Notes under the pieces: model-generated | Database searches by the model: none | Told to the model about the DNA's origin: nothing | The model's input: only the letters and a program-made list of their open reading frames with translations | Shown: in pieces, positions 10,694-63,507 of the stretch | Position numbering within the stretch: the first letter of the stretch is position 1 | Layout: each line of letters opens with the position of its first letter | NCBI RefSeq assembly: GCF_041886205.1 | Contig: NZ_CP169029.1 | Source: Escherichia coli | GTDB taxonomy: Bacteria; Pseudomonadota; Gammaproteobacteria; Enterobacterales; Enterobacteriaceae | Direction: 5' to 3' (one strand) | Length of the DNA stretch: 64,000 nucleotides | Made by a program: the position numbers and the translations under genes

Positions 10694-13057
<2,364 letters not shown>

Positions 13058-46212: not shown

Positions 46213-47935
46213 TTAAGAATCAGCCTGACTCGGGATCAGTTTTTGCCAGATAGCTGAAACGTATTTTGCCTGGTAACGGGCGTCATCAAGTGCATTATGG
46301 CGCTCACCTTCGAATGGAATAGCCGTTCTGGCATCGAAGTCTATGGCTTTCCCCAGCTCAACGATTGTGCGTACATCGCGATCGTTGTAGTAACGCCACG
46401 GGCAGGGGATCCCCTGCCGTTCGTATGAACGGCGCAAAATCGTGTTGTCGAAGTTGGCTCCATTTCCCCAGACATGAACAAAAAATTCACCGGAGTTTTC
46501 GTCGATAAATTCCCGCAATTGTAACAGTGCATCATCTAACGGGATTTCATCGGTCATAATGGCAGATTGCGCTTCGCGTGATTGTTTAAGCCACCATTTA
46601 ATGGTGTCCCGATCAATGACTCCGCCAGCAGTTTCCAGATCGATAGTCTTACTAAATTCCGGTCCCATATCTCCGGTTTGCGGATCGAAAAATATTGCAC
46701 CTATTGAGATAATCGGGGCATCGGGATTTTTTCCCATGGTTTCAAGGTCGATCATCAGATGAATCCCCGCTCTGCTGGTGGATGTGAGATTATGATGACC
46801 GTTTGCCTTAATTAAGGGATCTGACGCCTCGCCAGTTTCACTATCGCTGGCATGATGCTGATTGCCGCCAGTGTTCTCCTTGTGCTGATGCGCAGTGCCT
46901 TCTATTTCCTCCGGATCATTTTCCTGAACTTCAGGCTGATTCTCTCCATCGAATATTTCCTGGTATGTTGCGTCACCCATCACCGCACCACAATCAGGGC
47001 AGTTGCCGCCACCGCTCTGACCGCAGGCGGTGCAGATCTTTTCCGGTTCCTGTTGCACTACTGGTTCAGGTTGTTTCGTTTCTGGCTCGTTTTGTTGCAT
47101 ATTTGGGCTGTTTTGTTCCGCTTTCTGGTCGTTCTGTTCCGTTTCTTGCTGGTTCTGGTTCACAGAATCGCGGGTCTGGATCCCCTTAATCCATTTCGGA
47201 TCATTCGGGTCGCTAATCCCTTCAACAAATTCACCACGTGATACTGCAAGCAGTTCATCGGCGTCAGGCTGGCTGATATTGGCTGCCTGCATAATTTTGT
47301 TTACTTCGTCAGCGGTAACTTTTACTGACCCTGGTTGTGCGGTCGTGTCAGATGCACCAGTATTTTGTTGTGAACCTGAGTATGTACCGTTTTTGCGGGC
47401 GAAATATTCTTCTTTCGTGATTTCAGTAGCCCCAGCAGACAGCGCCTTATCCAGACCAGAAAGTTTATTTGCGCGACCGTATTTTTCGCCATCCTTGTCG
47501 GTGAAGAGGAAGTAGAACGGCCCCTCACGTTCTACAGATGGTTCGACTTCCACTTTGCATTCGGTTTTTTCGTTGTCTGGAATTGCCGTTTCCACTGCAT
47601 CAGTTTCTGGTACTGGCGACGAGAGAGTATCAGTTGCGCTCTGATTTGTTCCTTCATCTTCAAACACGCCCTTTGTAGTCAGGTATTCAGTAATGTATTT
47701 GTTCAGTGCCACAGGGTCTTTGTGAATGTCGATCGGACGTTCACGGACAAGGCCAAAAATAGTCTGGCGGTCGTAGCGAAGGGCATCAGGCTGTTTGCGC
47801 ATTGATGCCGAGATACGCTTCCAGTCTTCGCGGTCGTTGTCGATAACTTCATTTTTTGCCCAGCGATGGATGCTGCCGTCAATGTTTCCGGCATCCACAT
47901 CACCAGGCCAGAGAGCGTAGGCCAGTTCGTCATCC
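46213..47935 (-). pseudogene. 3' portion of a phage exonuclease gene (DnaQ-like DEDDh 3'-5' exonuclease domain) interrupted by IS629
   Basis: Open frame continues upstream from the called ORF right up to the IS629 left end; C-terminus has exonuclease motifs (…MIDLETMG…, …HNALDDA…). Confidence 0.7.
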
Positions 47936-47989
47936 TGAACCGCCCCGGGAATCCTGGAGACTAAACTTCCTGAGAAAGAGGTAAACAGG

Positions 47990-48316
47990 ATGACTAAAAA
48001 TACTCGTTTTTCCCCCGAAGTCCGTCAACGGGCAGTCCGTATGGTTCTGGAAAGTCAGAGCGAATATGACTCACAATGGGCGACAATTTGTTCCATTGCT
48101 CCAAAGATTGGCTGTACGCCGGAGACTCTGCGTGTCTGGGTTCGCCAGCATGAGCGGGATACCGGGGGCGGTGATGGAGGGCTCACCACCGCTGAACGTC
48201 AGCGTCTGAAAGAGCTGGAACGTGAAAATCGTGAACTGCGCCGCAGTAACGATATCCTTCGCCAGGCTTCCGCTTATTTTGCGAAGGCGGAGTTCGACCG
48301 CCTCTGGAAAAAATGA
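47990..48316 (+). CDS. IS629 transposase OrfA (HTH)
   Basis: 108-aa [22 protein letters not shown]...; ends in an A-run slippery site. Confidence 0.85.
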
Positions 48317-49203
48317 TGCCACTGCTGGATAAGCTGCGTGAGCAGTACGGGGTCGGACCGCTATGCAGCGAACTGCATATTGCCCCGTCAACGTATTACC
48401 ACTGTCAGCAACAGCGACATCATCCGGATAAACGCAGTGCCCGTGCGCAGCGCGATGACTGGCTGAAGAAAGAGATACAGCGCGTATACGATGAAAATCA
48501 CAAGGTATACGGTGTGCGTAAAGTCTGGCGTCAGTTGTTACGGGAAGGTATCAGAGTGGCCAGATGCACTGTGGCACGTCTCATGGCGGTTATGGGACTT
48601 GCCGGTGTTCTCCGGGGTAAAAAGGTCCGTACGACCATCAGCCGGAAAGCCGTTGCCGCAGGCGACCGCGTAAACCGTCAGTTCGTGGCAGAACGACCTG
48701 ACCAGCTGTGGGTGGCTGATTTTACTTACGTCAGCACATGGCGGGGCTTCGTCTATGTGGCGTTCATCATTGATGTGTTTGCCGGATACATCGTGGGGTG
48801 GCGGGTCTCATCGTCCATGGAAACGACATTCGTGCTGGATGCACTGGAGCAGGCGTTATGGGCCCGTCGACCGTCCGGCACGGTCCATCACAGTGATAAA
48901 GGTTCTCAGTATGTATCGCTGGCCTACACACAGCGGCTTAAGGAAGCCGGATTACTGGCATCAACAGGAAGTACAGGCGACTCGTATGACAACGCGATGG
49001 CGGAGAGCATCAATGGTCTTTACAAAGCGGAGGTAATACACCGTAAGAGCTGGAAAAACCGTGCAGAAGTGGAACTGGCCACACTCACGTGGGTGGACTG
49101 GTATAACAATCGACGATTGCTGGAAAGGCTGGGCCATACTCCTCCGGCAGAAGCAGAAAAAGCTTATTATGCTTCCATCGGAAACGATGATCTGGCAGCC
49201 TGA
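48313..49203 (+). CDS. IS629 transposase OrfB (DDE integrase domain), -1 frame relative to OrfA
   Basis: 296-aa ORF with DDE motif region; overlaps orfA in the -1 frame as in IS3-family elements. Confidence 0.85.
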
Positions 49204-49245
49204 GTTCACAGATAAAACACTCTCCAGGAAACCCGGGGCGGTTCA

Positions 49246-49760: not shown

Positions 49761-50017
49761 ATATTCAGCATCCCAGGAATCGAGGGCAGGGCGGGGTATA
49801 CCGGGTTTATCCTCGCAAACAAGAAATTTATAAGCGCAGTCCTGAGCAGCCGGATAATGTTCCAGGAATTGCCAGTGAAATTTTGCGCGGGCGCGACGTT
49901 CATCACCGGCTTCAATGGCAGTGGCTACAGTGAGACGAACTTCGCCGTGCGCTTTCGTGTTGTGTGCCTGCTTTTAACCACGTCAGGCGAGGTGGTATCC
50001 TTAAAATCACCACAGTT

Positions 50018-50593
50018 TTAAGGATTCATTAAGCAATGTCGCAACCACCAATAAATCCGCTTAAGAACATGAAAATTGATTACTGGTATAAAGCGCTTAC
50101 AGTTGTTGGCGCTGCGTTGTTTGTCTTTAATGGAACGTCTTTTTTTGACAGATATCCCGTTGTTCCATTGGATTTTTTGTCCTCCGGCATCTTTTTTATT
50201 GGTTTGGGGGAGTGGATTAATCACCCTCTCAAAGTGAGATTTATTGGTCCTGGAGTTTGGACTCGTGGATATAATCGTTCTTAGTGCGCACTCGGTATCA
50301 TCTTCGACATACTTGGTTGTTTCCTGATTGTTACAGGAGTCGTCAAGTTCTTCTGATGTAAAACCGCAAATGGGGCACGTAACGGGAATTTTGAAAAGCG
50401 TTTCTCCGGGTTCCAGAACAAAATTTTCTGCGGTCTGATTTTGCTTCTCATATTTGTGCTCCGCGTCATTGTGAGAGCACATTCTTATTCTGAGTGCCTG
50501 TTTAAACTCACTGAAGCTGAGAGCTTCTTCGCCTTCGGCAAGACCTTCGAAGTATTCTTCGTAAGCCTTTTCCATGATTGTGTCGAAATCCAT
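50018..50593 (-). CDS. hypothetical prophage early-region protein with CxxC zinc-ribbon-like motif; 3' extent uncertain
   Basis: ATG at 50593 preceded by RBS AGGTGAG; N-terminal ~100 aa protein-like (…VTCPICGFTSEE…), distal part low-complexity and overlapping a plus-strand ORF. Confidence 0.4.
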   Translation of the reverse strand: MDFDTIMEKAYEEYFEGLAEGEEALSFSEFKQALRIRMCSHNDAEHKYEKQNQTAENFVLEPGETLFKIPVTCPICGFTSEELDDSCNNQETTKYVEDDTECALRTIISTSPNSRTNKSHFERVINPLPQTNKKDAGGQKIQWNNGISVKKRRSIKDKQRSANNCKRFIPVINFHVLKRIYWWLRHCLMNP

Positions 50594-50594
50594 A

Positions 50595-50831
50595 TCACTC
50601 ACCTGAGTTTCTTTCCAGCCAGCGACGGGCACCATTTTCGGTTTTAAACGTTTTGCTTTTGGTATACGTCATCGCGGTGAACGTACCGTCCTGGTTGGGG
50701 AACACGCCACATACCGGAGATTCGCTGTTGCCAAGATCGATAGTATCCATGCTGACCTCATTTCCCCTTAACGCCGGGGTAGCGGAACAAAAACCTGCTG
50801 CATAGTTATTAAAGTTGAACCCTGCCGTCAT
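50595..50831 (-). CDS. hypothetical small prophage protein
   Basis: 78-aa ORF whose stop lies 1 nt before the next ATG (translationally coupled arrangement). Confidence 0.4.
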   Translation of the reverse strand: MTAGFNFNNYAAGFCSATPALRGNEVSMDTIDLGNSESPVCGVFPNQDGTFTAMTYTKSKTFKTENGARRWLERNSGE

Positions 50832-51047
50832 GTTCTTACGCCTCGGGCTGGCTACTTAACCCCTGACCACTGCCTGGTAACTCGAAGTATTGCCCTGCAT
50901 TCTGTGGGGCGGGGTGGGTGGCAGGCATATAATGTACTTTGCGTTCATTGTTGTAAAGTACTTTTAGTACATTTTGTGTGTAAAAAAATGAGATGGGATA
51001 AAGTGAAGCACAAACCCGGAGGAAGGCGCTACCGGATTTATGCTGGT

Positions 51048-51467
51048 TTAAGAGGCTTTTTGTTTTTTCTTTCGTGCTAACTCTTCGTAAATTGCATTGT
51101 ACTTCTGTTTTTTCTCTTCAAGAGTTTTTAAAAGTTCATCTGTCTCACTGTCAGGGAGCTCGTCCAGAAGGTCAATGATGATTTTTTGTCTTGGATTTAA
51201 CTCCTGATAGAAACGTACCTGTCCACTTTCTTCTGTATCCTCTCCCAAAAGATAGGTTGGTGTTGTTCCTATTAGTGTTGCTAATTCCCTTAATTTCTCC
51301 CGGCGAGGAATTGTTTCGCCATTAAACCATTTGCTAACCGCTTTTGGTGTTAATTTCATTCGACGGGCAATTTCTGCCTGCCTTCCATGTTGTTCATAAC
51401 CAGCGTTTTCACAGGCTAGCGCAAGCCTACTGGCGAACTCTTTACGCGCTTTATCTTCATGAACCAT
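51048..51467 (-). CDS. prophage repressor, XRE-family HTH (DicA/cI-like)
   Basis: 139-aa ORF with HTH (…MKLTPKAVSKWFNGETIP…); divergent from a Cro-like gene. Confidence 0.75.
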   Translation of the reverse strand: MVHEDKARKEFASRLALACENAGYEQHGRQAEIARRMKLTPKAVSKWFNGETIPRREKLRELATLIGTTPTYLLGEDTEESGQVRFYQELNPRQKIIIDLLDELPDSETDELLKTLEEKKQKYNAIYEELARKKKQKAS

Positions 51468-51546
51468 AAGTTCAATGATATTCGCTCTTGAATGTACTGT
51501 CAGTTCTGTTATAGCATGTACTCAAAGTTCACACTGTGAGGGTGAT

Positions 51547-51801
51547 ATGAACCAGAAAACACTTGAAGATGTAATCAAAACTGTTCGCGTTGCTGTTGTG
51601 GCCGACGTTTGTGGTGTCAGCCAAAGAGCAATCTATAAATGGATGGATAACGGAAAATTGCCTCGCACAGAATATACCGGCGAAACAAATTACGCTGAAA
51701 AAATCGCTCTTGCATCAAACGGATTATTTTCTGCCGATGCAATTTTAACTATTGGCAGGAATAAAACTACTACGAAAAAGCTGATGGGAGTTGATTCATG
51801 A
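51547..51801 (+). CDS. Cro/YdaS-like HTH protein
   Basis: ATG at 51547 with RBS GAGGGTGA; HTH (…VADVCGVSQRAIYKWMDNGKLP…); ATGA overlap with next gene. Confidence 0.65.
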   Translation: MNQKTLEDVIKTVRVAVVADVCGVSQRAIYKWMDNGKLPRTEYTGETNYAEKIALASNGLFSADAILTIGRNKTTTKKLMGVDS

Positions 51802-52223
51802 AAATCAAGCATGAACACATCCGCATGGCGATGAATGCCTGGGCGCATCCGGACGGCGAAAAAGTACCGGCTGCGAAAATTACCAAAGCGTATTTCGAGC
51901 TGGGAATGACGTTCCCGGAACTGTATGACGACAGCCATCCGGAAGCCCTGGCTCGCAATACTCAGAAAATTTTCCGCTGGGTGGAGAAAGACACCCCTGA
52001 TGCGGTTAAAAAAATTCAGGCGTTGTTACCAGCTATCGAAAAAGCAATGCCACCTCTGCTGGTGGCCCGAATGCGCAGTCATAGCTCAGCCTATTTTCGG
52101 GAACTAGTGGAGACGCGGGAACGACTGGTGAGAGACGCTGATGATTTTGTCGCAGTGGCGATCGCTGGTTTCAACCAGATGAATCGTGGTGGCCCTGCAG
52201 GAAATATTGTGGTTGTGCATTGA
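51798..52223 (+). CDS. YdaT-like prophage protein
   Basis: 141-aa ORF beginning MKIKHEHI..., same length class and context as Rac YdaT (recalled). Confidence 0.6.
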   Translation: MKIKHEHIRMAMNAWAHPDGEKVPAAKITKAYFELGMTFPELYDDSHPEALARNTQKIFRWVEKDTPDAVKKIQALLPAIEKAMPPLLVARMRSHSSAYFRELVETRERLVRDADDFVAVAIAGFNQMNRGGPAGNIVVVH

Positions 52224-52294
52224 CTCGCAATATTCATACCGGATCACTTCCGGCAATTTGTGAGTAAAAAGATTCGGTATCAAAAGAGGTGAGT

Positions 52295-53365
52295 ATGGCT
52301 AACGCCTGGCTCAGATTATGGCATGACATGCCAAATGACCCTAAGTGGCGAACAATTGCCAGGGTGTCAGGGCAGCCAATTGCAACAGTGATGGCAGTGT
52401 ATATCCACCTCTTGGTGAGCGCGTCACGAAATGTCACGCGAGGTCACATTGATGTCACGACAGAAGATTTGGCAAGTGCGCTCGACGTGACAGAAGAGGT
52501 AATTGATTCAATTTTGCAGACGATGCAGGGGCGGGTACTTGATGGTGATTTAATCACTGGATGGGAAAAACGCCAGGTGCTTAAAGAGGACAACGGCAAT
52601 ATTTCGCAAACCGCAAAATCTCCTGCAGAGCGCAAGAGGGCGCAGCGAGAGAGGGAAAGAAAGCGGGAACAAAATGGCGATTGTCACGGCGCGTCACGAA
52701 ATGTCACGCACATGTCACGACGAGTCACGACAGATAAAGATACAGATAAAGATACAGATCAAGAAGATCAAAACACTATGGTCCATGGCGTAAAAAACGC
52801 CACGAACCAGGCAGGGGATGTTCAGACCGTCAATCTTGGTCAGCCAGCAGGCACGACACCGGAAGCCGATTCAGCGTATGCGCTGAAAGCCGATTCGGGC
52901 GCTGTGCAGCAGGTGATGACCGCAAGGCCGGAGCAATCACACCAACTGCAGCAGCCCGAAGCCGATTCCGCCATTCAGCGGGAAGCCGATCGGGTAGTCC
53001 CGGAAAACACCGGGCAGTCTGTGGGACGAGTGGATTATCCGGATGTGTTCGAACAGGTCTGGCGGGAGTACCCGTTGCGTGCCGGAGCAAACCCGAAGAA
53101 ATCCGCTTTCAGTGCCTGGAAGGCCAGATTACGCGAGGGGGTGCCACCAGAGGCCATGCTGGATGGCGTGAGGCGTTACGCAAGATACTTGGCGGCTACC
53201 GGGAAAACGGGAACGGAATTTGTTCAGCGAGCGACGACGTTTTTTGGACCGGACCGGAATTTTGAGAACTCCTGGTTGCTCCCGGTAAGCGGCACGAACA
53301 ACCAGCGTTGTGTGAATCATATTTCTGAACCGGATAACGAAATTCCGCCGGGCTTCAGGGGGTAA
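52295..53365 (+). CDS. putative phage replication initiation protein (O/YdaU-like)
   Basis: Position after the cro-like gene; ATG at 52295 with RBS; internal iteron-like DNA repeats. Confidence 0.55.
   Translation: MANAWLRLWHDMPNDPKWRTIARVSGQPIATVMAVYIHLLVSASRNVTRGHIDVTTEDLASALDVTEEVIDSILQTMQGRVLDGDLITGWEKRQVLKEDNGNISQTAKSPAERKRAQRERERKREQNGDCHGASRNVTHMSRRVTTDKDTDKDTDQEDQNTMVHGVKNATNQAGDVQTVNLGQPAGTTPEADSAYALKADSGAVQQVMTARPEQSHQLQQPEADSAIQREADRVVPENTGQSVGRVDYPDVFEQVWREYPLRAGANPKKSAFSAWKARLREGVPPEAMLDGVRRYARYLAATGKTGTEFVQRATTFFGPDRNFENSWLLPVSGTNNQRCVNHISEPDNEIPPGFRG
52421..52760 (+). repeat. iteron-like direct repeats (putative prophage origin) inside the replication gene
   Basis: Exact 19-bp repeat GCGTCACGAAATGTCACGC at 52421-52439 and 52690-52708; about nine GTCAC motifs in two clusters; tandem ACAGATAAAGAT repeat at 52731-52760. 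Confidence 0.65.
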
Positions 53366-55228: not shown

Positions 55229-55245
55229 TTTTGTGGAGTAAGTTG

Positions 55246-55623
55246 ATGCGTGATATTCAGATGGTTCTTGAGCGTTGGGGGGCATGGGCGGCTAATAATC
55301 ATGAAGATGTGACCTGGTCGTCCATTGCCGCCGGTTTTAAGGGATTAATTCCTTCAAAAGTAAGATCTCGTCCGCAATGCTGTGACGATGACGCGATGAT
55401 CATTTGTGAATGTATGGCTCGCCTGAAAAAAAACAACAGCGATTTACATGATTTATTGGTGGACTATTATGTCGGCGGCATGACTTTTATGGCGCTTGCA
55501 CATAAGCATGGGCGATCTGATTGTTGGGTTGGCAGGATGCTCCAGAAAGCTGAGGGCGTAGTGGAGGGCATGCTGATGGTGTTGGATCTCCGATTGGAGA
55601 TGGATGCTGATTGTTCGAAATAA
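55246..55623 (+). CDS. putative late-gene antiterminator (small Q-like family)
   Basis: 125-aa ORF with RBS GGAG, located just upstream of a terminator and the lysis region; family assignment from memory. Confidence 0.45.
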
Positions 55624-55721
55624 TTAAAGGAAAAGTTGCTGTCTGATTTTCATTAGTCTAACATTTTAAATGTTGGAATCGCAACGTAGTTATTATCATA
55701 TAACAGCTTGTTTCCTGATTT

Positions 55722-55750
55722 AGCCAGCCTCCCCAAAGGCTGGTTTTTTT
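55722..55750 (+). terminator. intrinsic terminator about 100 bp downstream of the Q-like gene (candidate tR')
   Basis: Hairpin GCCAGCC-TCCCCAAA-GGCTGG followed by a T7 run. Confidence 0.6.
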
Positions 55751-55778
55751 CTAATAAGTATCATTTCGGGTGGGGATT

Positions 55779-56303
55779 TTATTGTTTAACCCATAATAGT
55801 TCATTGACATTGAATCCCAACTTTTGAGCGGTACGCACATAGTCTGCTTTTACATTATCTGGAATAGTTTGGGTCCTTGCCAGAATCCATAGGTATTCTC
55901 TGTTCGGACCACTGACAAGAGCATACTTATACTCATCATCCAGTTTGATTACATTATAGCCACCATAGAAGGGGCCAAAAAACGAAACTTTCAACGCTGC
56001 AGTTTTAGTATCTCCAGTAAAGTATGCTTTACCTTCGCTCTCGCTCCATTTGTTTTTCGTTGGATCGTATCCACGGTTAAGTACGCGAATCCCTCCGTCG
56101 TTCCGTTTTTCATAAGTAGCGCTGACCTGTTCCAGACCACGTTCGAACCAGTTCTCGAGGCGAGCTATTTCATACCATTTTCCGAGGTAGCGGTTGGCGT
56201 CAAAATTTGTAATCGGCTGCACACCTTTAGGTGGTGTCGGGGCCTTACATGCTATAAGAGTGAAAGAGAGTGCAATGCCAGTCAACACAGGCCATAACTT
56301 CAT
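55779..56303 (-). CDS. outer-membrane lipocalin lipoprotein (Blc-like)
   Basis: 174-aa ORF with lipobox (LIAC) and lipocalin motifs (…NFDANRYLGKWYEIARL…, …KVSFFGPFYGGYNVI…). Confidence 0.75.
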   Translation of the reverse strand: MKLWPVLTGIALSFTLIACKAPTPPKGVQPITNFDANRYLGKWYEIARLENWFERGLEQVSATYEKRNDGGIRVLNRGYDPTKNKWSESEGKAYFTGDTKTAALKVSFFGPFYGGYNVIKLDDEYKYALVSGPNREYLWILARTQTIPDNVKADYVRTAQKLGFNVNELLWVKQ

Positions 56304-56495
56304 AATAAATCCTGTACTTTTGATAGTTGAGAGTAAGTATGAAAGATAGATGAGTACGACCGATCACTTAAAGAACTTTCCTACTATATTAGGAATAGTC
56401 AATAACAGAAAAATTGTCAGTGATGAAGCCAGAAAGGCAATTTAGTCCGTGCACTACAAAGTTTATGTGTTAATGAATTAGTCAAGGGGGAGGAA

Positions 56496-57455
56496 ATGAT
56501 AAAAAAACCTGTGATTGGGATCAGCGGTTGTTTGGGCGGTTCTGCTGTTCGTTTTGATGGTGGTCACAAAAGAGATGACTTTTTAATGGACAAATTAGTG
56601 GAATGGGTAACATTCAGACCAGTATGTCCGGAAATGGCTATAGGGCTGCCAGTTCCGCGTCCTGCTCTACGACTTGTGCGCTCGAAGCAAGGAAATATAC
56701 GGATGTGTTTCAGCCACGACCAGAATGAGGATGTGACAGAGAGAATGACAGAGTTTAGTCGTTCTTATATGGACAAATTAAAGGATGTATCGGGGTTTGT
56801 GGTTTGTGCTAAATCTCCCAGCTGTGGCATGGAGCGCGTGCGTGTCTATGATGAAAATGGTAATCGAGGTCGTAAAGATGGAGTGGGACTATTTACGAGC
56901 ACTTTGATGGAAAAGTTTTCCTGGCTACCGGTTGAAGAGGATGGGCGATTACATGATCCAGTGCTTCGTGAGAATTTTATTGAAAGAGTTTTTGCTTTGC
57001 ATGAGCTCAATCACCTTTACAAGGAGAAATTATCAAGAAGAGAGTTATTAGCTTTTCATAGTCGTTATAAGCTTCAGTTGTTGGCGCATAGCCAGGCAGG
57101 CTATAAAGATATGGGACCATTTGTGGCTGCAATACACGAGTGGGCGGACCTTGAATCATACTTTGAGGTGTATCGTGATAATCTGATGGCGATTCTCAGA
57201 AAACCAGCATCACGTAAAAATCACACGAATGTGCTGATGCATATACAGGGGTATTTTAGTAATTACTTAAGTACACGCCAGCGTAAAGAGTTGAGCGAGG
57301 TTATACTTAACTATCGCTTTGGCACATTGCCTCTTCTTGCGCCGTTGACTCTGCTGAAGCATTATCTGGGTGAGTATCCTAATGATTACTTGCTTACACA
57401 GAATTACTTCGATCCCTATCCGGAAGAACTGGCTCTAAGACTGATGGTGAATTAA
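56496..57455 (+). CDS. DUF523/DUF1722 fusion protein (YbgA-like C-terminal half)
   Basis: 319-aa ORF with conserved Cys residues in the N-terminal half; family call from memory. Confidence 0.5.
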   Translation: MIKKPVIGISGCLGGSAVRFDGGHKRDDFLMDKLVEWVTFRPVCPEMAIGLPVPRPALRLVRSKQGNIRMCFSHDQNEDVTERMTEFSRSYMDKLKDVSGFVVCAKSPSCGMERVRVYDENGNRGRKDGVGLFTSTLMEKFSWLPVEEDGRLHDPVLRENFIERVFALHELNHLYKEKLSRRELLAFHSRYKLQLLAHSQAGYKDMGPFVAAIHEWADLESYFEVYRDNLMAILRKPASRKNHTNVLMHIQGYFSNYLSTRQRKELSEVILNYRFGTLPLLAPLTLLKHYLGEYPNDYLLTQNYFDPYPEELALRLMVN

Positions 57456-57861
57456 CTGTATGCGATATCATCTGAAAGTGATGAGTTCCTGTATGCAGGA
57501 TATTTACAATCGTAAAAACTACGCTATGATGCTCATAGTGTCAGTTTTTATAAAAATCCTGTTCACGCTAAAGAAAACATTGAGATGCAATTTAATGTTG
57601 GTAAACATACCAACCCCAAAAGATTTTATTCAATCTGTTTTTATATGAAGATATTTCAAGTGAATATAAAGAGCATATAATATTATTATTGCACGCAGCT
57701 ATTATAATATAACAGATTAGTTTAATGATTTGTTTTTTGTGAGTTAAACACATGGTTTTATAGTTGTGATGCAATGAGATTTTCCTTATTGTTGAACTGG
57801 CGAATATTGATTTTCCACCTATACTTACCTGGTGTAACCCCAATGATATCAGGTGGATAAT

Positions 57862-58575
57862 ATGTCATACATATGTTCTATCATTTTGGTGTTGAACTCG
57901 TTTGGTGTCCGAATTGGTAAAGAAGATATTTTGTTTAAAAAAGGAAATGCTGTCCTCATTGAATACAATTTAAAAGATCTTTTTTCGTCAAATACAGATC
58001 ATCTAATGATCGTAGATGTTGAGGAGAAAACAGTTAATGATTTCTTTAAAAACTACACACTCTCACCTTTTTCTGTAAGAAGGTTTTATCCGTCATACTT
58101 GATAGTAGAATGTGAAGATTTTTCATTGTTAAAGAACTTGGTTGCATGCTTGAATTGTGATAGCAAAACCGTGGATGTAGTTAGAAATCAAATATCACTT
58201 GCATGTCTTGCTGTCTTATCTTCAGAGAAAATAGTGCAAAGTTTTTTGTTCGGAAGTCTTAATAGCTTAGGTTGTAAAGTTAAGGCTATTATTCACTCGG
58301 ATATCTCAGCGTCATGGAGACTTTGTGATATATCTTCAAGATTATATATGAGCGAGAGTTTGTTAAAAAGAAAATTAAAAGACGAAGGATTATCGTTTAG
58401 TAAATTAATTCTTGAAGAACGAATGATGATGGCGCAAAGATTATTGATCTACAGTAACCATACTGTCGGCAAGGTGGCGGGAATATGCGGGTATGACAAT
58501 GCATCATATTTTGTAAGTGTTTTTAGAGGATATTTTGGTGTGCCTCCGCACCAATATTTATCAAGATTTTCTTAG
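57862..58575 (+). CDS. AraC-family transcriptional regulator
   Basis: C-terminal AraC-type HTH (…LLIYSNHTVGKVAGICGYDNASYFVSVFRGYFGVPPHQY…); RBS AGGTGG before ATG at 57862; gene and flanks visibly AT-rich. Confidence 0.75.
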   Translation: MSYICSIILVLNSFGVRIGKEDILFKKGNAVLIEYNLKDLFSSNTDHLMIVDVEEKTVNDFFKNYTLSPFSVRRFYPSYLIVECEDFSLLKNLVACLNCDSKTVDVVRNQISLACLAVLSSEKIVQSFLFGSLNSLGCKVKAIIHSDISASWRLCDISSRLYMSESLLKRKLKDEGLSFSKLILEERMMMAQRLLIYSNHTVGKVAGICGYDNASYFVSVFRGYFGVPPHQYLSRFS

Positions 58576-58765
58576 AAGATATGATGTGATGGCATTTTAT
58601 AAAGTTATTTTTTGAAGTGTAAGATTATACGATATTTTTAGCTACGCCAGAATAATTGCTGGCGTTTTTCTTTTTGAATAGATGTTCGGGCCTTACGCTA
58701 ATGTAACTTCTTTCCTTCTTCGAACCAAACCGTGTACACCATCCGTTATCTGCGGAGGTGAGGCT

Positions 58766-58981
58766 ATGAAATCCATGGATAAGTTAACAACGGGCATCGC
58801 CTACAGCACCTCTGCAGGCAGTGCTGGCTACTGGTTTTTACAGTTGCTCGATAAAGTCACGCCCTCACAGTGGGCGGCAATAGGTGTATTGGGTAGTCTG
58901 GTATTTGGCATGCTGACGTATCTGACAAATCTTTATTTCAAGATTAAAGAAGACAGGCGTAAGGCTGCGAGAGGAGAGTAA
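58766..58981 (+). CDS. phage holin, class II (S21-like pinholin)
   Basis: 71-aa product [26 protein letters not shown]... with two TM segments; RBS GGAGGTGA; first gene of lysis cassette. Confidence 0.85.
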
Positions 58982-58985
58982 TCCA

Positions 58986-59297
58986 ATGACTCAAGACTAT
59001 GAACTGGTTGTGAAAGGAGTCCGTAATTTTGAGAATAAAGTTACGGTAACTGTAGCCTTACAGGACAAAGAACGCTTTGACGGTGAAATTTTTGGCCTGG
59101 ATGTCGCCATGGACCGTGTTGAAGGAGCTGCGCTGGAGTTTTATGAGGCAGCAGCCAGAATGAGCGTCCGGCAAGTCTTCCTGGAAGTAGCAGAAAAATT
59201 GTCAGAAAAAGTTGAGTCTTATCTGCAGCATCAGTACTCCTTTAAGATTGAAAATCCTGACAATAAGCACGAGCGTCCTCATCATAAATATCTATGA
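58986..59297 (+). CDS. YdfR-like hypothetical protein located between holin and endolysin
   Basis: 103-aa ORF; same position and size as ydfR in K-12 Qin (recalled). Confidence 0.55.
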   Translation: MTQDYELVVKGVRNFENKVTVTVALQDKERFDGEIFGLDVAMDRVEGAALEFYEAAARMSVRQVFLEVAEKLSEKVESYLQHQYSFKIENPDNKHERPHHKYL

Positions 59298-59823
59298 ACA
59301 CAAAAATCAGATACGGCCTGTCGGCTGCCGTTCTGGCGCTGATTGGTGCTGGCGCATCTGCTCCTCAGATACTTGACCAGTTTCTGGACGAAAAAGAAGG
59401 TAACCACACAATGGCATACCGCGATGGTTCTGGCATATGGACCATCTGTCGGGGTGCCACAGTGGTGGATGGAAAAAACGTTTTTCCCAATATGAAACTG
59501 TCGAAGGAAAAATGCGACCAGGTCAACGCCATTGAGCGTGATAAGGCGCTGGCATGGGTGGAGCGCAATATAAAAGTTCCACTGACCGAGCCACAGAAAG
59601 CCGGTATCGCGTCATTCTGTCCCTATAACATTGGCCCTGGTAAGTGTTTTCCGTCGACGTTTTATAAGCGGCTTAATGCCGGTGATCGTAAAGGCGCATG
59701 CGAGGCGATTCGCTGGTGGATAAAGGACGGTGGACGTGATTGCCGCATTCGTTCAAATAATTGTTACGGTCAGGTTATTCGTCGTGACCAGGAGAGTGCA
59801 TTAACCTGCTGGGGGATAGAACA

Positions 59824-59827
<4 letters not shown>
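59294..59827 (+). CDS. phage endolysin, GH24 lysozyme with N-terminal signal-anchor-release (SAR) segment
   Basis: 177-aa ORF; hydrophobic Gly/Ala-rich N-terminus (…LSAAVLALIGAGASA…) followed by lysozyme domain. Confidence 0.85.
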
Positions 59828-60320
<493 letters not shown>

Positions 60321-60683
60321 GGTAATATTAAATCGGAACATTTACATCGCGGAATGTAAAATTTAAATAAAAAGGACTCTTCCATGAGCCAAAATTCCTG
60401 AAATCTTAAGGGTAAGATAAAAGGTCTTAATCAGAATGACACGTTATTATTAATAAATAAAGCTATTCTTTCATTGCTGTGTTTTTCTTTACAAAAGTAA
60501 TCCTTGCTATGGGTGGTTAATCATGCGTTAATGGTGTTCTGGTTTGTTACAAATTTATCTGAAGCAGTCATTGTTATAATTTTATTATTTGTACCTCTTG
60601 AGATTTCCTTGTTGGTTTTTCTCTCTGATATTTTTTTTCGGACCATTCTGCCCAAGGGCTAATTTCTTCAAAAGGTAATAATT

Positions 60684-60896
60684 ATGTCTAACAAAATGAC
60701 TGGTTTAGTGAAATGGTTTAACCCTGAAAAAGGTTTTGGTTTCATCACGCCGAAAGATGGCAGCAAAGATGTGTTTGTCCATTTCTCAGCAATTCAGAGC
60801 AACGATTTCAAAACATTAACTGAGAATCAGGAAGTTGAATTTGGTATTGAGAACGGACCTAAAGGTCCTGCCGCTGTTCATGTAGTGGCGCTTTGA
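60684..60896 (+). CDS. cspI: cold-shock protein (CspA family), prophage-encoded
   Basis: 70-aa [41 protein letters not shown]...; preceded by a long AT-rich leader. Confidence 0.8.
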
Positions 60897-61167
60897 GGTA
60901 GACAATATTACAAACCATATTCACTTTAGATGCCCGTGTTGTCATGGTTCCCAGTATAGAACATCATCTTTTGATGTTTCTGACATGAATCCTTTCGGGG
61001 CAAAATGTATCTTTTGTAAATCAATGATGATTACATTTGATAATATTTCACAATACTTAAATGCCAGCCGTCTGTCGTTGGATTTAAAAAAGTGAAAATG
61101 AAGGCTCCTTCGGGAGTTTTTTTGCTTGGTATCTATTCGATGGATACTCACATACTACGGTAACATC

Positions 61168-61398
61168 ATGAAAAAAATCATAGTTTTTTTTAACTCTGAA
61201 CCAGCAGTGGTAGTGCCAGCGATGACTGGAGTTAACACCATCATGCGTGAATATCCAAATGGCGAAAAAACACACCTTACTGTAATGGCCGCAGGGTTTC
61301 CATCTCTGACCGGAGATCATAAAGTCATTTATGTAGCAGCGGATCGACATGTAACTTCAGAAGAAATTCTGGAAGCAGCAATGAGACTCTTGAATTGA
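61168..61398 (+). CDS. hypothetical small prophage protein
   Basis: 76-aa ORF from ATG at 61168 (MKKIIVFF...); weak RBS. Confidence 0.35.
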   Translation: MKKIIVFFNSEPAVVVPAMTGVNTIMREYPNGEKTHLTVMAAGFPSLTGDHKVIYVAADRHVTSEEILEAAMRLLN

Positions 61399-61570
61399 TT
61401 TGATTCTAATGCATTGATAATAAATGATAATCATCTTTATCTGTTTGTGTGAAATTTAGACCGTCGTATGTTGATTATTGCGATGTTTCATCTTATCTTT
61501 TATACGTTTGCTCCATATAATTGACACTACTGTGTACCAGGACAGTCATAACAGACTAAAAGAGGAAATG

Positions 61571-61744
61571 ATGAACATTGAAGAGTTAAAAACAAAAACA
61601 GAAGCAGATATTTCTGAATATATAACAAAAAAAATCATTGAGCTTAAGAAAAAGACCGGGAAAGAAGTTACCAGTATCCAGTTTACTGCACGGGAAAAAA
61701 TGACTGGTCTTGAAAGCTATGATATCAAGATTGATTTAATCTAG
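61571..61744 (+). CDS. gnsB: GnsA/GnsB-family small protein
   Basis: 57-aa product MNIEELKTKTEADISEYITKKIIELKKKTGKEV...REKMTGLESYDIKIDLI. Confidence 0.75.
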   Translation: MNIEELKTKTEADISEYITKKIIELKKKTGKEVTSIQFTAREKMTGLESYDIKIDLI

Positions 61745-62039
61745 CATGTTTATAGTATTAGCATCAATTTCTCATCAGATGCTATTCAACAATACAAATT
61801 ACCCATAAACCTCGTTTTTACGGGGTTTTGTTATATTTAAACATTACCGAATAGATATAAATCTCGATTGTCGATGGTATTGGTTATGTGACAATACCTA
61901 GTCTTTCCGGTATGCCTGAAGAGAATACAAACGACAGATTATGTAAGGGAAACGCGCTGAAACTTTCACTCTTTCATGCTGAGTGATTTGACGTTATATT
62001 TTTAGCCGCAAGTGAAGAGCAAACGAATGGAGCGACAAA

Positions 62040-62246
62040 ATGCATAAAGATCAATACACTGATGCCCCCTCCCAGGAGCAGGTTCGTGTAAAAACTATGC
62101 TTAATAGCACCATTTCGATGGGTTACCCGGATGTTGTAATTGCATGTATAGAACATCAAGTATCTCTGGAAGCATTCAGGGCAATTGAGGCCGCGTTAGT
62201 AAAGCACGATAAGAATACGAAGGATTATTCCCTGGTGGTTGACTGA
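62040..62246 (+). CDS. hypothetical small prophage protein
   Basis: 68-aa ORF; no recognised family. Confidence 0.3.
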
Positions 62247-62469
62247 TCACCATAACTGCTAACCATTCTGACCATTTCACAAGTGACAGAGTCAATATCG
62301 TATTCTGTCACTGTAAGGCTAATACAGTACTGCAATTCAACTACAGCAATGCCTCGTATTTAGGTGAATTTACAATATCGTCCAGTTCGGATGCCGGCTG
62401 CATTTCTGAAGATAAGGCATTTCGGTTCGCGTATTTTCCCCTCATGCTCGTCAGTCCTGCGCGTAGTAA

Positions 62470-62838
62470 GAAACACCAAACGGGACGGTTACAGTCACCA
62501 TAAGCGATGATCATAACTTTGACCGTCAAATCATTATTCCGCCCATTATCTTTAACGGAATAGCGTATAGCGATCCGGGAAGTGGTAATAACCCGGGAGG
62601 TACAAGATACACGGGTTATGGTTTTGAAGTTCGCAAAAACGGTGTATTAATCGCATCCAGAGAAACTAAAGGGGCCATTCCCGGTAGCTACAGTGCGGTT
62701 ATTGATATGCCGAGTGGCAGGGGAAGCGTCACTCTGGAGTTTAAGGTTTTCCATAAAGGCAATCAGTGGGCAGGTAATATCACCGACTGTACGGTGATTG
62801 TGACCAAAAAAGCCGCTTCCGGCATCAGTATTCGTTGA
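62470..62838 (+). pseudogene. 3' remnant of an upstream tail gene (host-specificity J-like), no start codon
   Basis: 123-codon open frame ending at TGA 62836-62838 with no in-frame start; lies immediately upstream of lom as J does in lambda. Confidence 0.4.
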
Positions 62839-62907
62839 AATTGTTATAACCCATATAAGGGCACCAGAAATGGTGCCTTTTTTATTGCAGAAAAGCGAGA
62901 GGTAATT

Positions 62908-63507
62908 ATGCGTAAACTTTATGCCGCCATTTTGTCCGCAGCCATTTGTCTGGCCGTATCCGGTGCGCCTGCATGGGCATCTGAACATCAGTCCACGCTG
63001 AGCGCGGGGTATCTTCATGCCTCGACGAACGTTCCCGGCAGCGATGATCTTAACGGGATTAACGTGAAATACCGTTATGAGTTTACGGACACACTGGGGC
63101 TGGTGACGTCATTCAGCTATGCAGGAGACAAGAATCGCCAGCTTACCCGTTACAGCGATACCCGCTGGCATGAAGATTCCGTGCGTAACCGCTGGTTCAG
63201 CGTGATGGTGGGGCCGTCTGTGCGCGTGAATGAATGGTTCAGCGCGTATGCGATGGCGGGTGTGGCTTACAGCCGTGTGTCGACTTTCTCCGGGGATTAT
63301 CTCCGCGTAACTGACAACAAGGGGAAAACGCACGACGTGCTGACCGGAAGTGATGACGGTCGCCACAGCAACACGTCTCTGGCGTGGGGAGCTGGCGTGC
63401 AGTTTAACCCGACCGAATCCGTGGCCATTGATATTGCTTATGAAGGCTCCGGCAGTGGCGACTGGCGCACTGACGGTTTCATCGTGGGTGTCGGTTATAA
63501 GTTCTGA
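62908..63507 (+). CDS. lom: Lom/Ail/OmpX-family outer membrane protein
   Basis: 199-aa ORF with signal peptide, beta-barrel features and C-terminal …GVGYKF; RBS GAGAGG. Confidence 0.85.

Follow-up and report, generated by a model that had tools for sequence, protein, structure and literature searches.

We analyzed the immunity region of a prophage carried in a 64,000-nucleotide stretch of an Escherichia coli genome (contig NZ_CP169029.1, assembly GCF_041886205.1; the whole stretch is referred to below as the window), in which a gene for a 139-residue repressor (51048-51467, minus strand, Pfam HTH_3) is flanked on both sides by repeats built on the word GTACT. We conclude, at a probability of roughly 85%, that these repeats are the operators of an HK022-type lambdoid immunity switch, that is, of a lysogeny switch. 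As read from the sequence, the GTACT and ATGTACT words are the half-sites of five 15-bp dyads of the form TGWAC-N5-GTWCA, two of which (OL1 and OL2) lie downstream of the repressor gene at a PL-like promoter, and three of which (OR1 to OR3) lie in or next to the divergent gap that separates the repressor gene from a cro-like gene. The proposal of the initial annotation of this region, that related motifs flank the repressor in the OL/OR layout of lambda, is supported by the mapping of annotated HK75/HK022 operators, by a weight matrix, by the homology of the repressor head and of Cro, and by conservation.

Five dyads around the repressor gene

The words on which the initial annotation was based are all present in the window: AATGTAC at 50931-50937, the palindrome AAAGTACTTT at 50955-50964 and GTACATT at 50968-50974 on the left, and two copies of ATGTACT, at 51492-51498 and 51516-51522, in the 79-bp repressor/cro gap (51468-51546) on the right. 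The repeating unit is nevertheless neither GTACT nor the 10-bp palindrome, as had been assumed, but the 15-bp dyad, present as two left and three right sites. What had been described as inverted arms around the left palindrome are the outer half-sites of the adjacent OL1 and OL2; the palindrome itself is a junction formed by the inner half-site of OL2 and the start of the PL -35 element; and the two "direct" ATGTACT words correspond to the left half-sites of the dyads OR2 and OR1, 24 bp apart. A third right-hand site (51460-51474), over the repressor start codon, had been overlooked. These distinctions are reflected in the statistics. The ATGTACT heptamer is not significantly enriched (7 occurrences in the window versus 4.6 expected, with 7 reached in 17 of 100 shuffles), and it was rejected as the unit together with the palindrome. 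The dyad GWAC-N5-GTWC, a general form of GTACT-N3-AGTWC, occurs 8 times versus 2.6 expected, a count reached in none of 100 shuffles. Five of these eight matches (starting at 50934, 50958, 51461, 51494 and 51518) fall within 600 bp around the repressor gene, where about 0.024 are expected per 600 bp, a post hoc figure insofar as the pattern was chosen after reading the sequence.

Read on the repressor-sense strand, the left pair comprises OL1 (TGAACGCAAAGTACA, 50933-50947), an exact GWAC-N5-GTWC match located in the PL spacer and overlapping the -10 element, and, 24 bp away, OL2 (TGTACTAAAAGTACT, 50957-50971), which abuts the PL -35 element and whose TGTAC...GTACT form is also found in HK022 and in Salmonella and Citrobacter relatives. 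On the right, OR3 (TGAACTTATGGTTCA, 51460-51474) spans the repressor ATG (51467-51465) and is identical to both oR1 and oR3 of HK022/HK75, OR2 (AGAACTGACAGTACA, 51493-51507) occupies the space between the -35 and -10 elements of a PR-like promoter, and OR1 (TGAACTTTGAGTACA, 51517-51531) covers the PR start region, 24 bp from OR2. The OR centers at 51524, 51500 and 51467 are thus spaced by 24 and 33 bp and stand at -57, -33 and 0 relative to the repressor ATG. The right half of OR3 (GTTCA) doubles as repressor codons 2-3 (51465-51460), as it also does in HK022, 933W and other relatives, which may be the reason for the Met-Val-His/Gln start that these repressors share.

We scanned the approximately 64,000 positions of the window with a position weight matrix (PWM) trained only on the six HK022-type operators annotated in HK75. 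The five sites rank 1 (OR3, 19.9 bits), 2 (OL2, 17.0 bits), 3 (OR1, 16.6 bits), 6 (OR2, 13.6 bits) and 9 (OL1, 12.4 bits); as the matrix was built from the HK75-annotated operators and not from the window sites, this ranking constitutes an independent test. Two other matches, of 14.4 bits each, are found inside recE (47054-47068) and far outside the prophage (11065-11079); the former carries a C at position 3, which is strongly disfavored by 933W CI, and both are probably due to chance.

The HK022 operators used for comparison derive from the GenBank annotation of HK75 (oR1-3, oL1-3, OFR, pR and pL, "similar to HK022") and from PMC8053113, and were checked against the HK022 sequence itself: oR1 and oR3 are both TGAACTTATGGTTCA, oR2 is GGAACTGATAGTACA, oL2 is TGTACTATTGGTACT and oL1 is TGAACTTTAAGTACA. 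For the 933W type, the OR1-3 annotation was taken from a 933W-type record. Ungapped alignment of the window with HK022 gives 58 identical positions out of 75 at OR and 43 out of 54 at OL-PL, as compared with 148 out of 228 for the DNA encoding the repressor head. The HK75-annotated oR1-3, oL1-2, pR and pL each fall on a window site or promoter, with OL1, OL2, OR2 and OR1 corresponding to oL1, oL2, oR2 and oR1, respectively.

The proteins encoded on either side of the divergent gap point in the same direction. The repressor combines an HK022-CI-like helix-turn-helix head with a DicA-like C-terminal tail and is 100% identical to the "CI repressor" of Escherichia phage Tritos. Over residues 4-102, the head shares 47.5% identity with HK022 CI (tblastn, E = 1e-22), and over residues 1-73 it shares 50.7% with 933W CI, while residues 30-137 are 29% identical to K-12 DicA (BLASTP, E = 5e-15) and PHROG 5736 spans residues 27-139. 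The HK022 CI alignment stops where the LexA-type cleavage and oligomerization domain would begin, and a DicA-homologous tail of about 50 residues is found there instead; Pfam detects helix-turn-helix families only in the repressor, without an S24 peptidase domain. DicA similarity does not extend to an equivalog-level match (NCBIfam PRK09706, 56.8 bits versus a cut-off of 101), and a search of solved structures for a close relative yielded nothing beyond weak similarity to the N-terminal domain of P22 C2 (E = 0.006). In 933W CI, contacts to operator positions 2-6 have been attributed by modeling to S41, K42, K46 and E51, of which S41 and K46 have been mutated (PMC3317979). On alignment to 933W CI, the window repressor and HK022 CI both feature P41, K42, K46 and E51, and their recognition helices (TPKAVSKWFNGE in the window, TPKAISKWFNGE in HK022 CI) differ by a single conservative change. 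Cro shares 60% identity with its HK022 counterpart over 73 residues (E = 1e-33). From these features we infer that the repressor has an HK022-like specificity, belonging to the known HK022/933W operator type, and that specificity may be shared with HK022 itself. The initial annotation had tied the motifs to the immunity specificity of the prophage; this specificity is not private to it.

Conservation of the sites and alternative explanations

The same initial annotation had named absence of the motifs from prophages with the same repressor as evidence that would speak against its proposal. The proposal withstands this check. Of 80 IMG/VR loci whose repressor is 99-100% identical, 76 retain the complete set of five exact sites at fixed positions, and exact dyad matches away from these five positions occur only twice in the 262 kb that the loci comprise. 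In variant counts over 81 sequences, the central N5 bases form the most variable class, and OR2 shows no polymorphism at all. At the four wholly non-coding sites, 0 of 32 core bases carry a non-singleton variant, versus 43 of 257 other non-coding positions (Fisher p = 0.007, a value that is only indicative because the 80 loci are closely related and their independence is overstated).

The layout also extends to more distant relatives. The five sites are kept alongside an E. coli short-form repressor that is 89% identical, and alongside two Salmonella short forms (62-65% identical repressors) despite the presence of higBA between the repressor gene and OL. This higB-higA insertion (2053-2720 in locus L089, 2088-2755 in locus L090) leaves the OL pair with PL, and its position between the repressor gene and OL-PL is that of rexAB in lambda. 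In Klebsiella phage Kp4864-1 and Citrobacter phage Omnitron, whose CI proteins are full-length (approximately 235-240 residues), the same three OR sites are found; the OR centers at -57, -33 and 0 from the ATG recur in HK022, Kp4864-1, Omnitron, L089 and L092. An OL pair 24 bp apart over TTTACA-17-CATwwT is found in the short-form relatives and in Omnitron, and none is seen in Kp4864-1 within the stretch scanned. G2, A4, C5, G11, T12 and C14 never vary in a total of 28 sites, in which positions 3 and 13 hold either A or T.

Besides the relatedness of the loci, several further points weigh against the assignment of the dyads as operators of an HK022-type switch. The conservation of OR3 is confounded with protein constraint because the site is partly coding. 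The -10 element of PR is weak (TATAGC) and falls below the threshold of the promoter scanner. OR2, which includes the PRM -35 element, has its center at -33 relative to the predicted PRM start and not at -42 as in lambda, so that bound repressor may either help or hinder its own promoter. No equivalents of HK022 oL3 or OFR were found, with no other PWM match above 5.3 bits in 50500-52400. Finally, it is from sequence that we infer binding of the dyads by the 139-residue repressor, whose dimerization and any cooperativity would have to come from a tail unrelated to the C-terminal domain of HK022 CI.

The missing HK022 CI cooperativity domain, together with signs of prophage degradation (the IS3-family element in recE, the replaced dicB/dicF segment, and lysis genes that run straight into csp and lom), could be taken to mean that the sites are relics of an HK022-like ancestor, left unused by a short repressor that acts elsewhere or not at all. 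We consider this very improbable: the core bases lack common variants while their neighbors vary, the five sites are intact in 76 of the 80 loci, the layout is preserved with 62-65% identical Salmonella short-form repressors, the DNA-contact residues are retained, and the live phage Tritos carries the same repressor and sites (PMC9928086). Similarly small odds apply to the possibility that the dyads are bound chiefly by Cro or by another early protein, such as the YdaT/CII-like one, rather than mainly by the 139-residue repressor. As an HK022-Cro homolog, Cro is indeed expected to recognize the same sites, and YdaT-family proteins are DNA-binding regulators; yet the same sites are CI operators in HK022 and 933W (PMC3317979, PMC8053113), the recognition helix of the repressor is almost unchanged, and Cro binding is already part of the operator model, so that it offers no true alternative.

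For the left cluster alone, the inverted arms seen in the initial annotation and a terminator scan that flags 50934-50961 on the plus strand (a stem of 10 pairs including 3 G-C, then TTTT) could suggest an RNA hairpin or terminator, or a DNA cruciform, in place of protein binding sites. A terminator or hairpin at 50925-50985 was rejected because shuffled sequences fold just as well as this weak structure (-6.9 kcal/mol, z = -1.05). Moreover, the strand flagged by the scan is the antisense one for the genes on both sides, the words recur at OR in direct and not inverted arrangement, and a far stronger hairpin and better terminator candidate exists at 51007-51044, all of which makes this explanation more improbable still than the preceding two. 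A chance cluster of A+T-rich, promoter-like words would agree with the lack of over-representation of ATGTACT (7 versus 4.6 expected), but is refuted by the statistics and comparative data, with no shuffle out of 100 reaching the dyad count, a matrix trained on HK022-type operators finding the sites, and their positions being conserved across genera.

Candidate promoters, predicted regulation and prophage context

The dyads are intimately associated with three candidate promoters. A PL-like promoter, TTTACA-17-CATTAT (50929-50957, minus strand), was recovered by a blind promoter scan and leads into the ydfA operon; its coordinates coincide exactly with those of the annotated HK75 pL in the ungapped alignment. 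On the opposite strand, a PR-like promoter read from the sequence (TTGAAT, 16 bp, TG-n-TATAGC; 51488-51515) leads into cro, the cII-like ydaT and replication genes, and the annotated HK75 pR maps to 51488-51517 of the window. The PR -10 region, between OR2 and OR1 (51513-51517, TATAGC/ATG), is the most polymorphic spot of the divergent region across loci L003-L082, and one of the variants improves the -10 element to TATAAC; this polymorphism may reflect tuning of PR strength.

The promoter scan also returned a PRM-like promoter, CTGACA-17-TATCAT (51475-51503, minus strand, 10 of 12 matches). Its -35 element corresponds to the central bases of OR2, which are kept as CTGAYA in all relatives, unlike the centers of the other operators, and the stretch 51475-51512 holds one rare variant in 81 sequences. 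Its -10 element ends 7 nt upstream of the repressor ATG, and no Shine-Dalgarno sequence precedes that codon; a leaderless repressor mRNA is therefore predicted, with OR3 centered on +1. On this deduced PRM start site, the repressor mRNA is probably leaderless.

A stem-loop just past the repressor stop codon (51007-51044, minus strand) folds at -19.2 kcal/mol (z = -4.8, with 0 of 200 shuffles as good), and its stem is invariant in 81 sequences save for one position that differs in 2 of them, the common variants all being in the loop. The hairpin is probably a terminator that ends the repressor transcript before PL and insulates PL from read-through, a role assigned with caution because no T-run directly follows the stem. 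In the PL leader (50745-50925), a put- or nut-like structured RNA was sought but not supported, with folding no better than shuffles (z = +0.82) and no Rfam match. A PL-leader box, AAGTAGCCAGCCCGAGGCGTAAGAA (50833-50857, minus strand), resembles GAAGTAGCCGCCCGGGGCATATGAA at the same place in Salmonella relatives (about 2880-2905 in L089).

These elements suggest a model where a repressor dimer would bind the five dyads through its HK022-CI-like helix-turn-helix, contacting positions 2-5 and 11-14 and leaving the central five bases free. OL1 and OL2 would cover the spacer, the -10 element and the -35 edge of PL, which leads into ydfA and beyond it in the direction of recE, xis and int, while OR1 and OR2 would cover the start and spacer of PR, which leads into cro, the YdaT/CII-like gene and replication genes. 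With these four sites occupied, RNA polymerase would be excluded and both early promoters would be shut in the lysogen. Occupancy of OR3 by excess repressor, or by Cro in lytic growth, would lower repressor expression; Cro is expected on the same dyads because it is an HK022-Cro homolog.

Given the DicA-like helical tail and the lack of an S24 domain, no RecA-linked self-cleavage is predicted, and induction would proceed by another route, possibly through an antirepressor or stochastic takeover by Cro. A tblastn search found no homolog of the antirepressor Rem in the window, a result that bears on the window only, since the prophage passes its end, and on Rem-like sequences, as an antirepressor could be unrelated in sequence; likewise, a Pfam scan of ten open reading frames on each side of the immunity region found Q, morons, lysis genes and Lom, and no antirepressor. 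Tritos is a plaque-forming phage with low-level spontaneous induction. In strain LF82, strong induction by ciprofloxacin was reported only for Gally and Cyrano and not for Tritos, whose production was slightly lowered by trimethoprim (PMC9928086). A repressor without a cleavage domain fits these observations, as Tritos is not among the ciprofloxacin-induced LF82 prophages. CRISPR interference knock-down of LF82 prophage repressors has been found to be detrimental (bioRxiv 10.64898/2026.01.05.697630).

The model predicts a prophage that is insensitive to the SOS response, with possible cross-immunity with HK022-type phages. More tentatively, and with odds that we place below even, the short non-cleavable repressor may read the operators of HK022 CI, and would then confer on its host immunity to phages of HK022 immunity. 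Provided that the specificities are shared, the short repressor could also be dominant and SOS-blind, keeping an HK022-type phage, whether already resident or newly arriving, silent during DNA damage; exchange of the C-terminal domain would then have connected a single immunity specificity to two induction routes.

The 1.27 kb around the repeats is 99.1% identical to Tritos, a prophage of strain LF82, and the module region is present (at least 80% covered) in 1020 of 5426 complete E. coli genomes, that is, in about a fifth. Leftwards, the first gene of the PL operon is ydfA (DUF1391; 50595-50750, minus strand). In its 78-residue open reading frame Pfam DUF1391 covers residues 29-76, PHROG 751 fits a 51-residue form end to end, and the gene is called as 50 residues in relatives; the true start is probably an internal ATG, giving 51 residues. 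Rightwards, the cro-like gene (51547-51801, plus strand, 84 residues), with a GAGGGTG ribosome-binding site ahead of its ATG, is followed in the cII position, second in the PR operon, by a YdaT-family gene (51798-52223, plus strand; Pfam YdaT_toxin), whose product matches PHROG 163 "CII-like transcriptional activator" (E = 4e-45), and by a gene labeled as a replication (replisome organizer) protein in Tritos (52289-53365, plus strand), with no Pfam match here. The database start codons of cro and of some repressor homologs, which extend these genes across the operator region, are probably misassigned. The Tritos "Cro" is annotated from an ATG at window position 51475 (108 residues; 6916-7242 in L001), while the HK022 Cro alignment and the ribosome-binding site favor 51547 (84 residues), and the Salmonella repressor P0015 is called 13 codons early, through OR (1501-1545 in L090).

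The window prophage departs from Tritos in three places, namely an IS3-family element, a replaced dicB/dicF segment and the right arm beyond 53923. The IS3-family insertion (47936-49242, orfA/orfB), which interrupts the recE-like gene relative to Tritos, contains an ALIL frameshift pseudoknot (Rfam RF01497, 48271-48387). The Tritos ydfC-dicF-dicB-ydfD segment is exchanged for approximately 560 bp of unrelated sequence at 49931-50492, with dicB and dicF both absent and no DicF detected by Rfam in the window; a 205-residue open reading frame (50018-50635) has a YdfB-like stretch close to the N-terminus (starting at about residue 15) before it continues into the replaced sequence. The right arm (55231-63507) carries a Q antiterminator, followed by cargo genes for a lipocalin (55779-56303), a 2-thiouracil desulfurase/DUF1722 protein (56496-57455) and an AraC-type regulator (57853-58575), and then by lysozyme, DUF2514, a cspA-type thermoregulator leader (60538-60923) and Lom (62908-63507). 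Up to the window end, past which the prophage continues, we saw no structural genes.

Relation to HK022, 933W, Qin and lambda

The closest likeness is to HK022 and HK75. The immunity regions share 15-bp dyads with TGAAC/TGTAC half-sites (OR3 being identical to HK022 oR1 and oR3), OR spacings of 24 and 33 bp with oR3 over the cI start codon, an OL1-OL2 pair 24 bp apart over a homologous pL, and similar repressor heads, contact-position residues and Cro proteins. HK022 CI is reported, in PMC8053113 citing Carlson and Little 1993, to bind adjacent OL and OR operators cooperatively and to loop OL to OR. The window repressor differs in that it has no S24/LexA-type C-terminal domain and carries the DicA-like tail instead. 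Moreover, pL leads into ydfA in the window and into putL-nun in HK022, with homology stopping at the -10 element and no similarity to HK022 putL found beyond it, and cII is replaced by a gene for a YdaT-family protein.

The operators also resemble those of the Shiga-toxin phage 933W (Koudelka laboratory), whose sites are likewise 15 bp long; their positions 2-5 are conserved, position 3 may be T or A, and the center is only loosely specified (PMC3317979). Both systems have variable site centers, three OR sites with OR3 over the cI ATG and only two OL sites, 933W being without OL3 (PMC3317979), and both repressors feature K42, K46 and E51. They differ at residue 41 (S in 933W CI, P in the window repressor and in HK022 CI), in the outer base, which is C rather than T in two of three 933W OR sites, and in the nature of 933W CI, a full-length, cleavable and non-cooperative binder (PMC3317979).

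With the DicA/DicC-dicBp locus of Qin, a cryptic prophage of E. coli K-12, the window shares a short repressor (135-139 residues) with a homologous C-terminal tail and no cleavage domain. In both, operators occupy the divergent gap and also a PL-like promoter that lies downstream of the repressor gene and leads into ydfA-ydfB (PMC10448788, PMC3441716). The Qin repressor DicA is non-cleavable and represses the PL-like dicBp, which runs into ydfA, and this repression is relieved by the antirepressor Rem (PMC10448788, PMC3441716). The Qin operator Oc, TTGTTAGTCATAACTAACAA (PMC3441716), is unrelated to the window dyads, which are not of the TTGTTAGTCATAACTAACAA type, and the window has neither dicB nor dicF nor a detectable Rem homolog.

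In lambda, too, two operator clusters over divergent early promoters flank the repressor gene, the OR1 and OR2 centers are 24 bp apart and a third OR site controls the maintenance promoter. Its operators, however, are unrelated and 17 bp long, OL has three sites, OR2 stands at -42 from PRM as opposed to -33 here, and lambda CI is RecA-cleavable, so that the relationship to lambda is one of functional analogy only.

Compared with these systems, the mechanism and operator type (HK022, 933W) and the short-repressor architecture (DicA) are known already, and the immunity region represents no new kind of mechanism, its one unusual trait being the short repressor with the DicA-like tail. Full-text literature searches found no published operator map for the module and no papers quoting the operator sequences. 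What our analysis adds is an operator and promoter map of a very common E. coli immunity module, also present in the live LF82 phage Tritos, and the indication that an HK022-type head and its operators can combine with a DicA-type non-cleavable tail.

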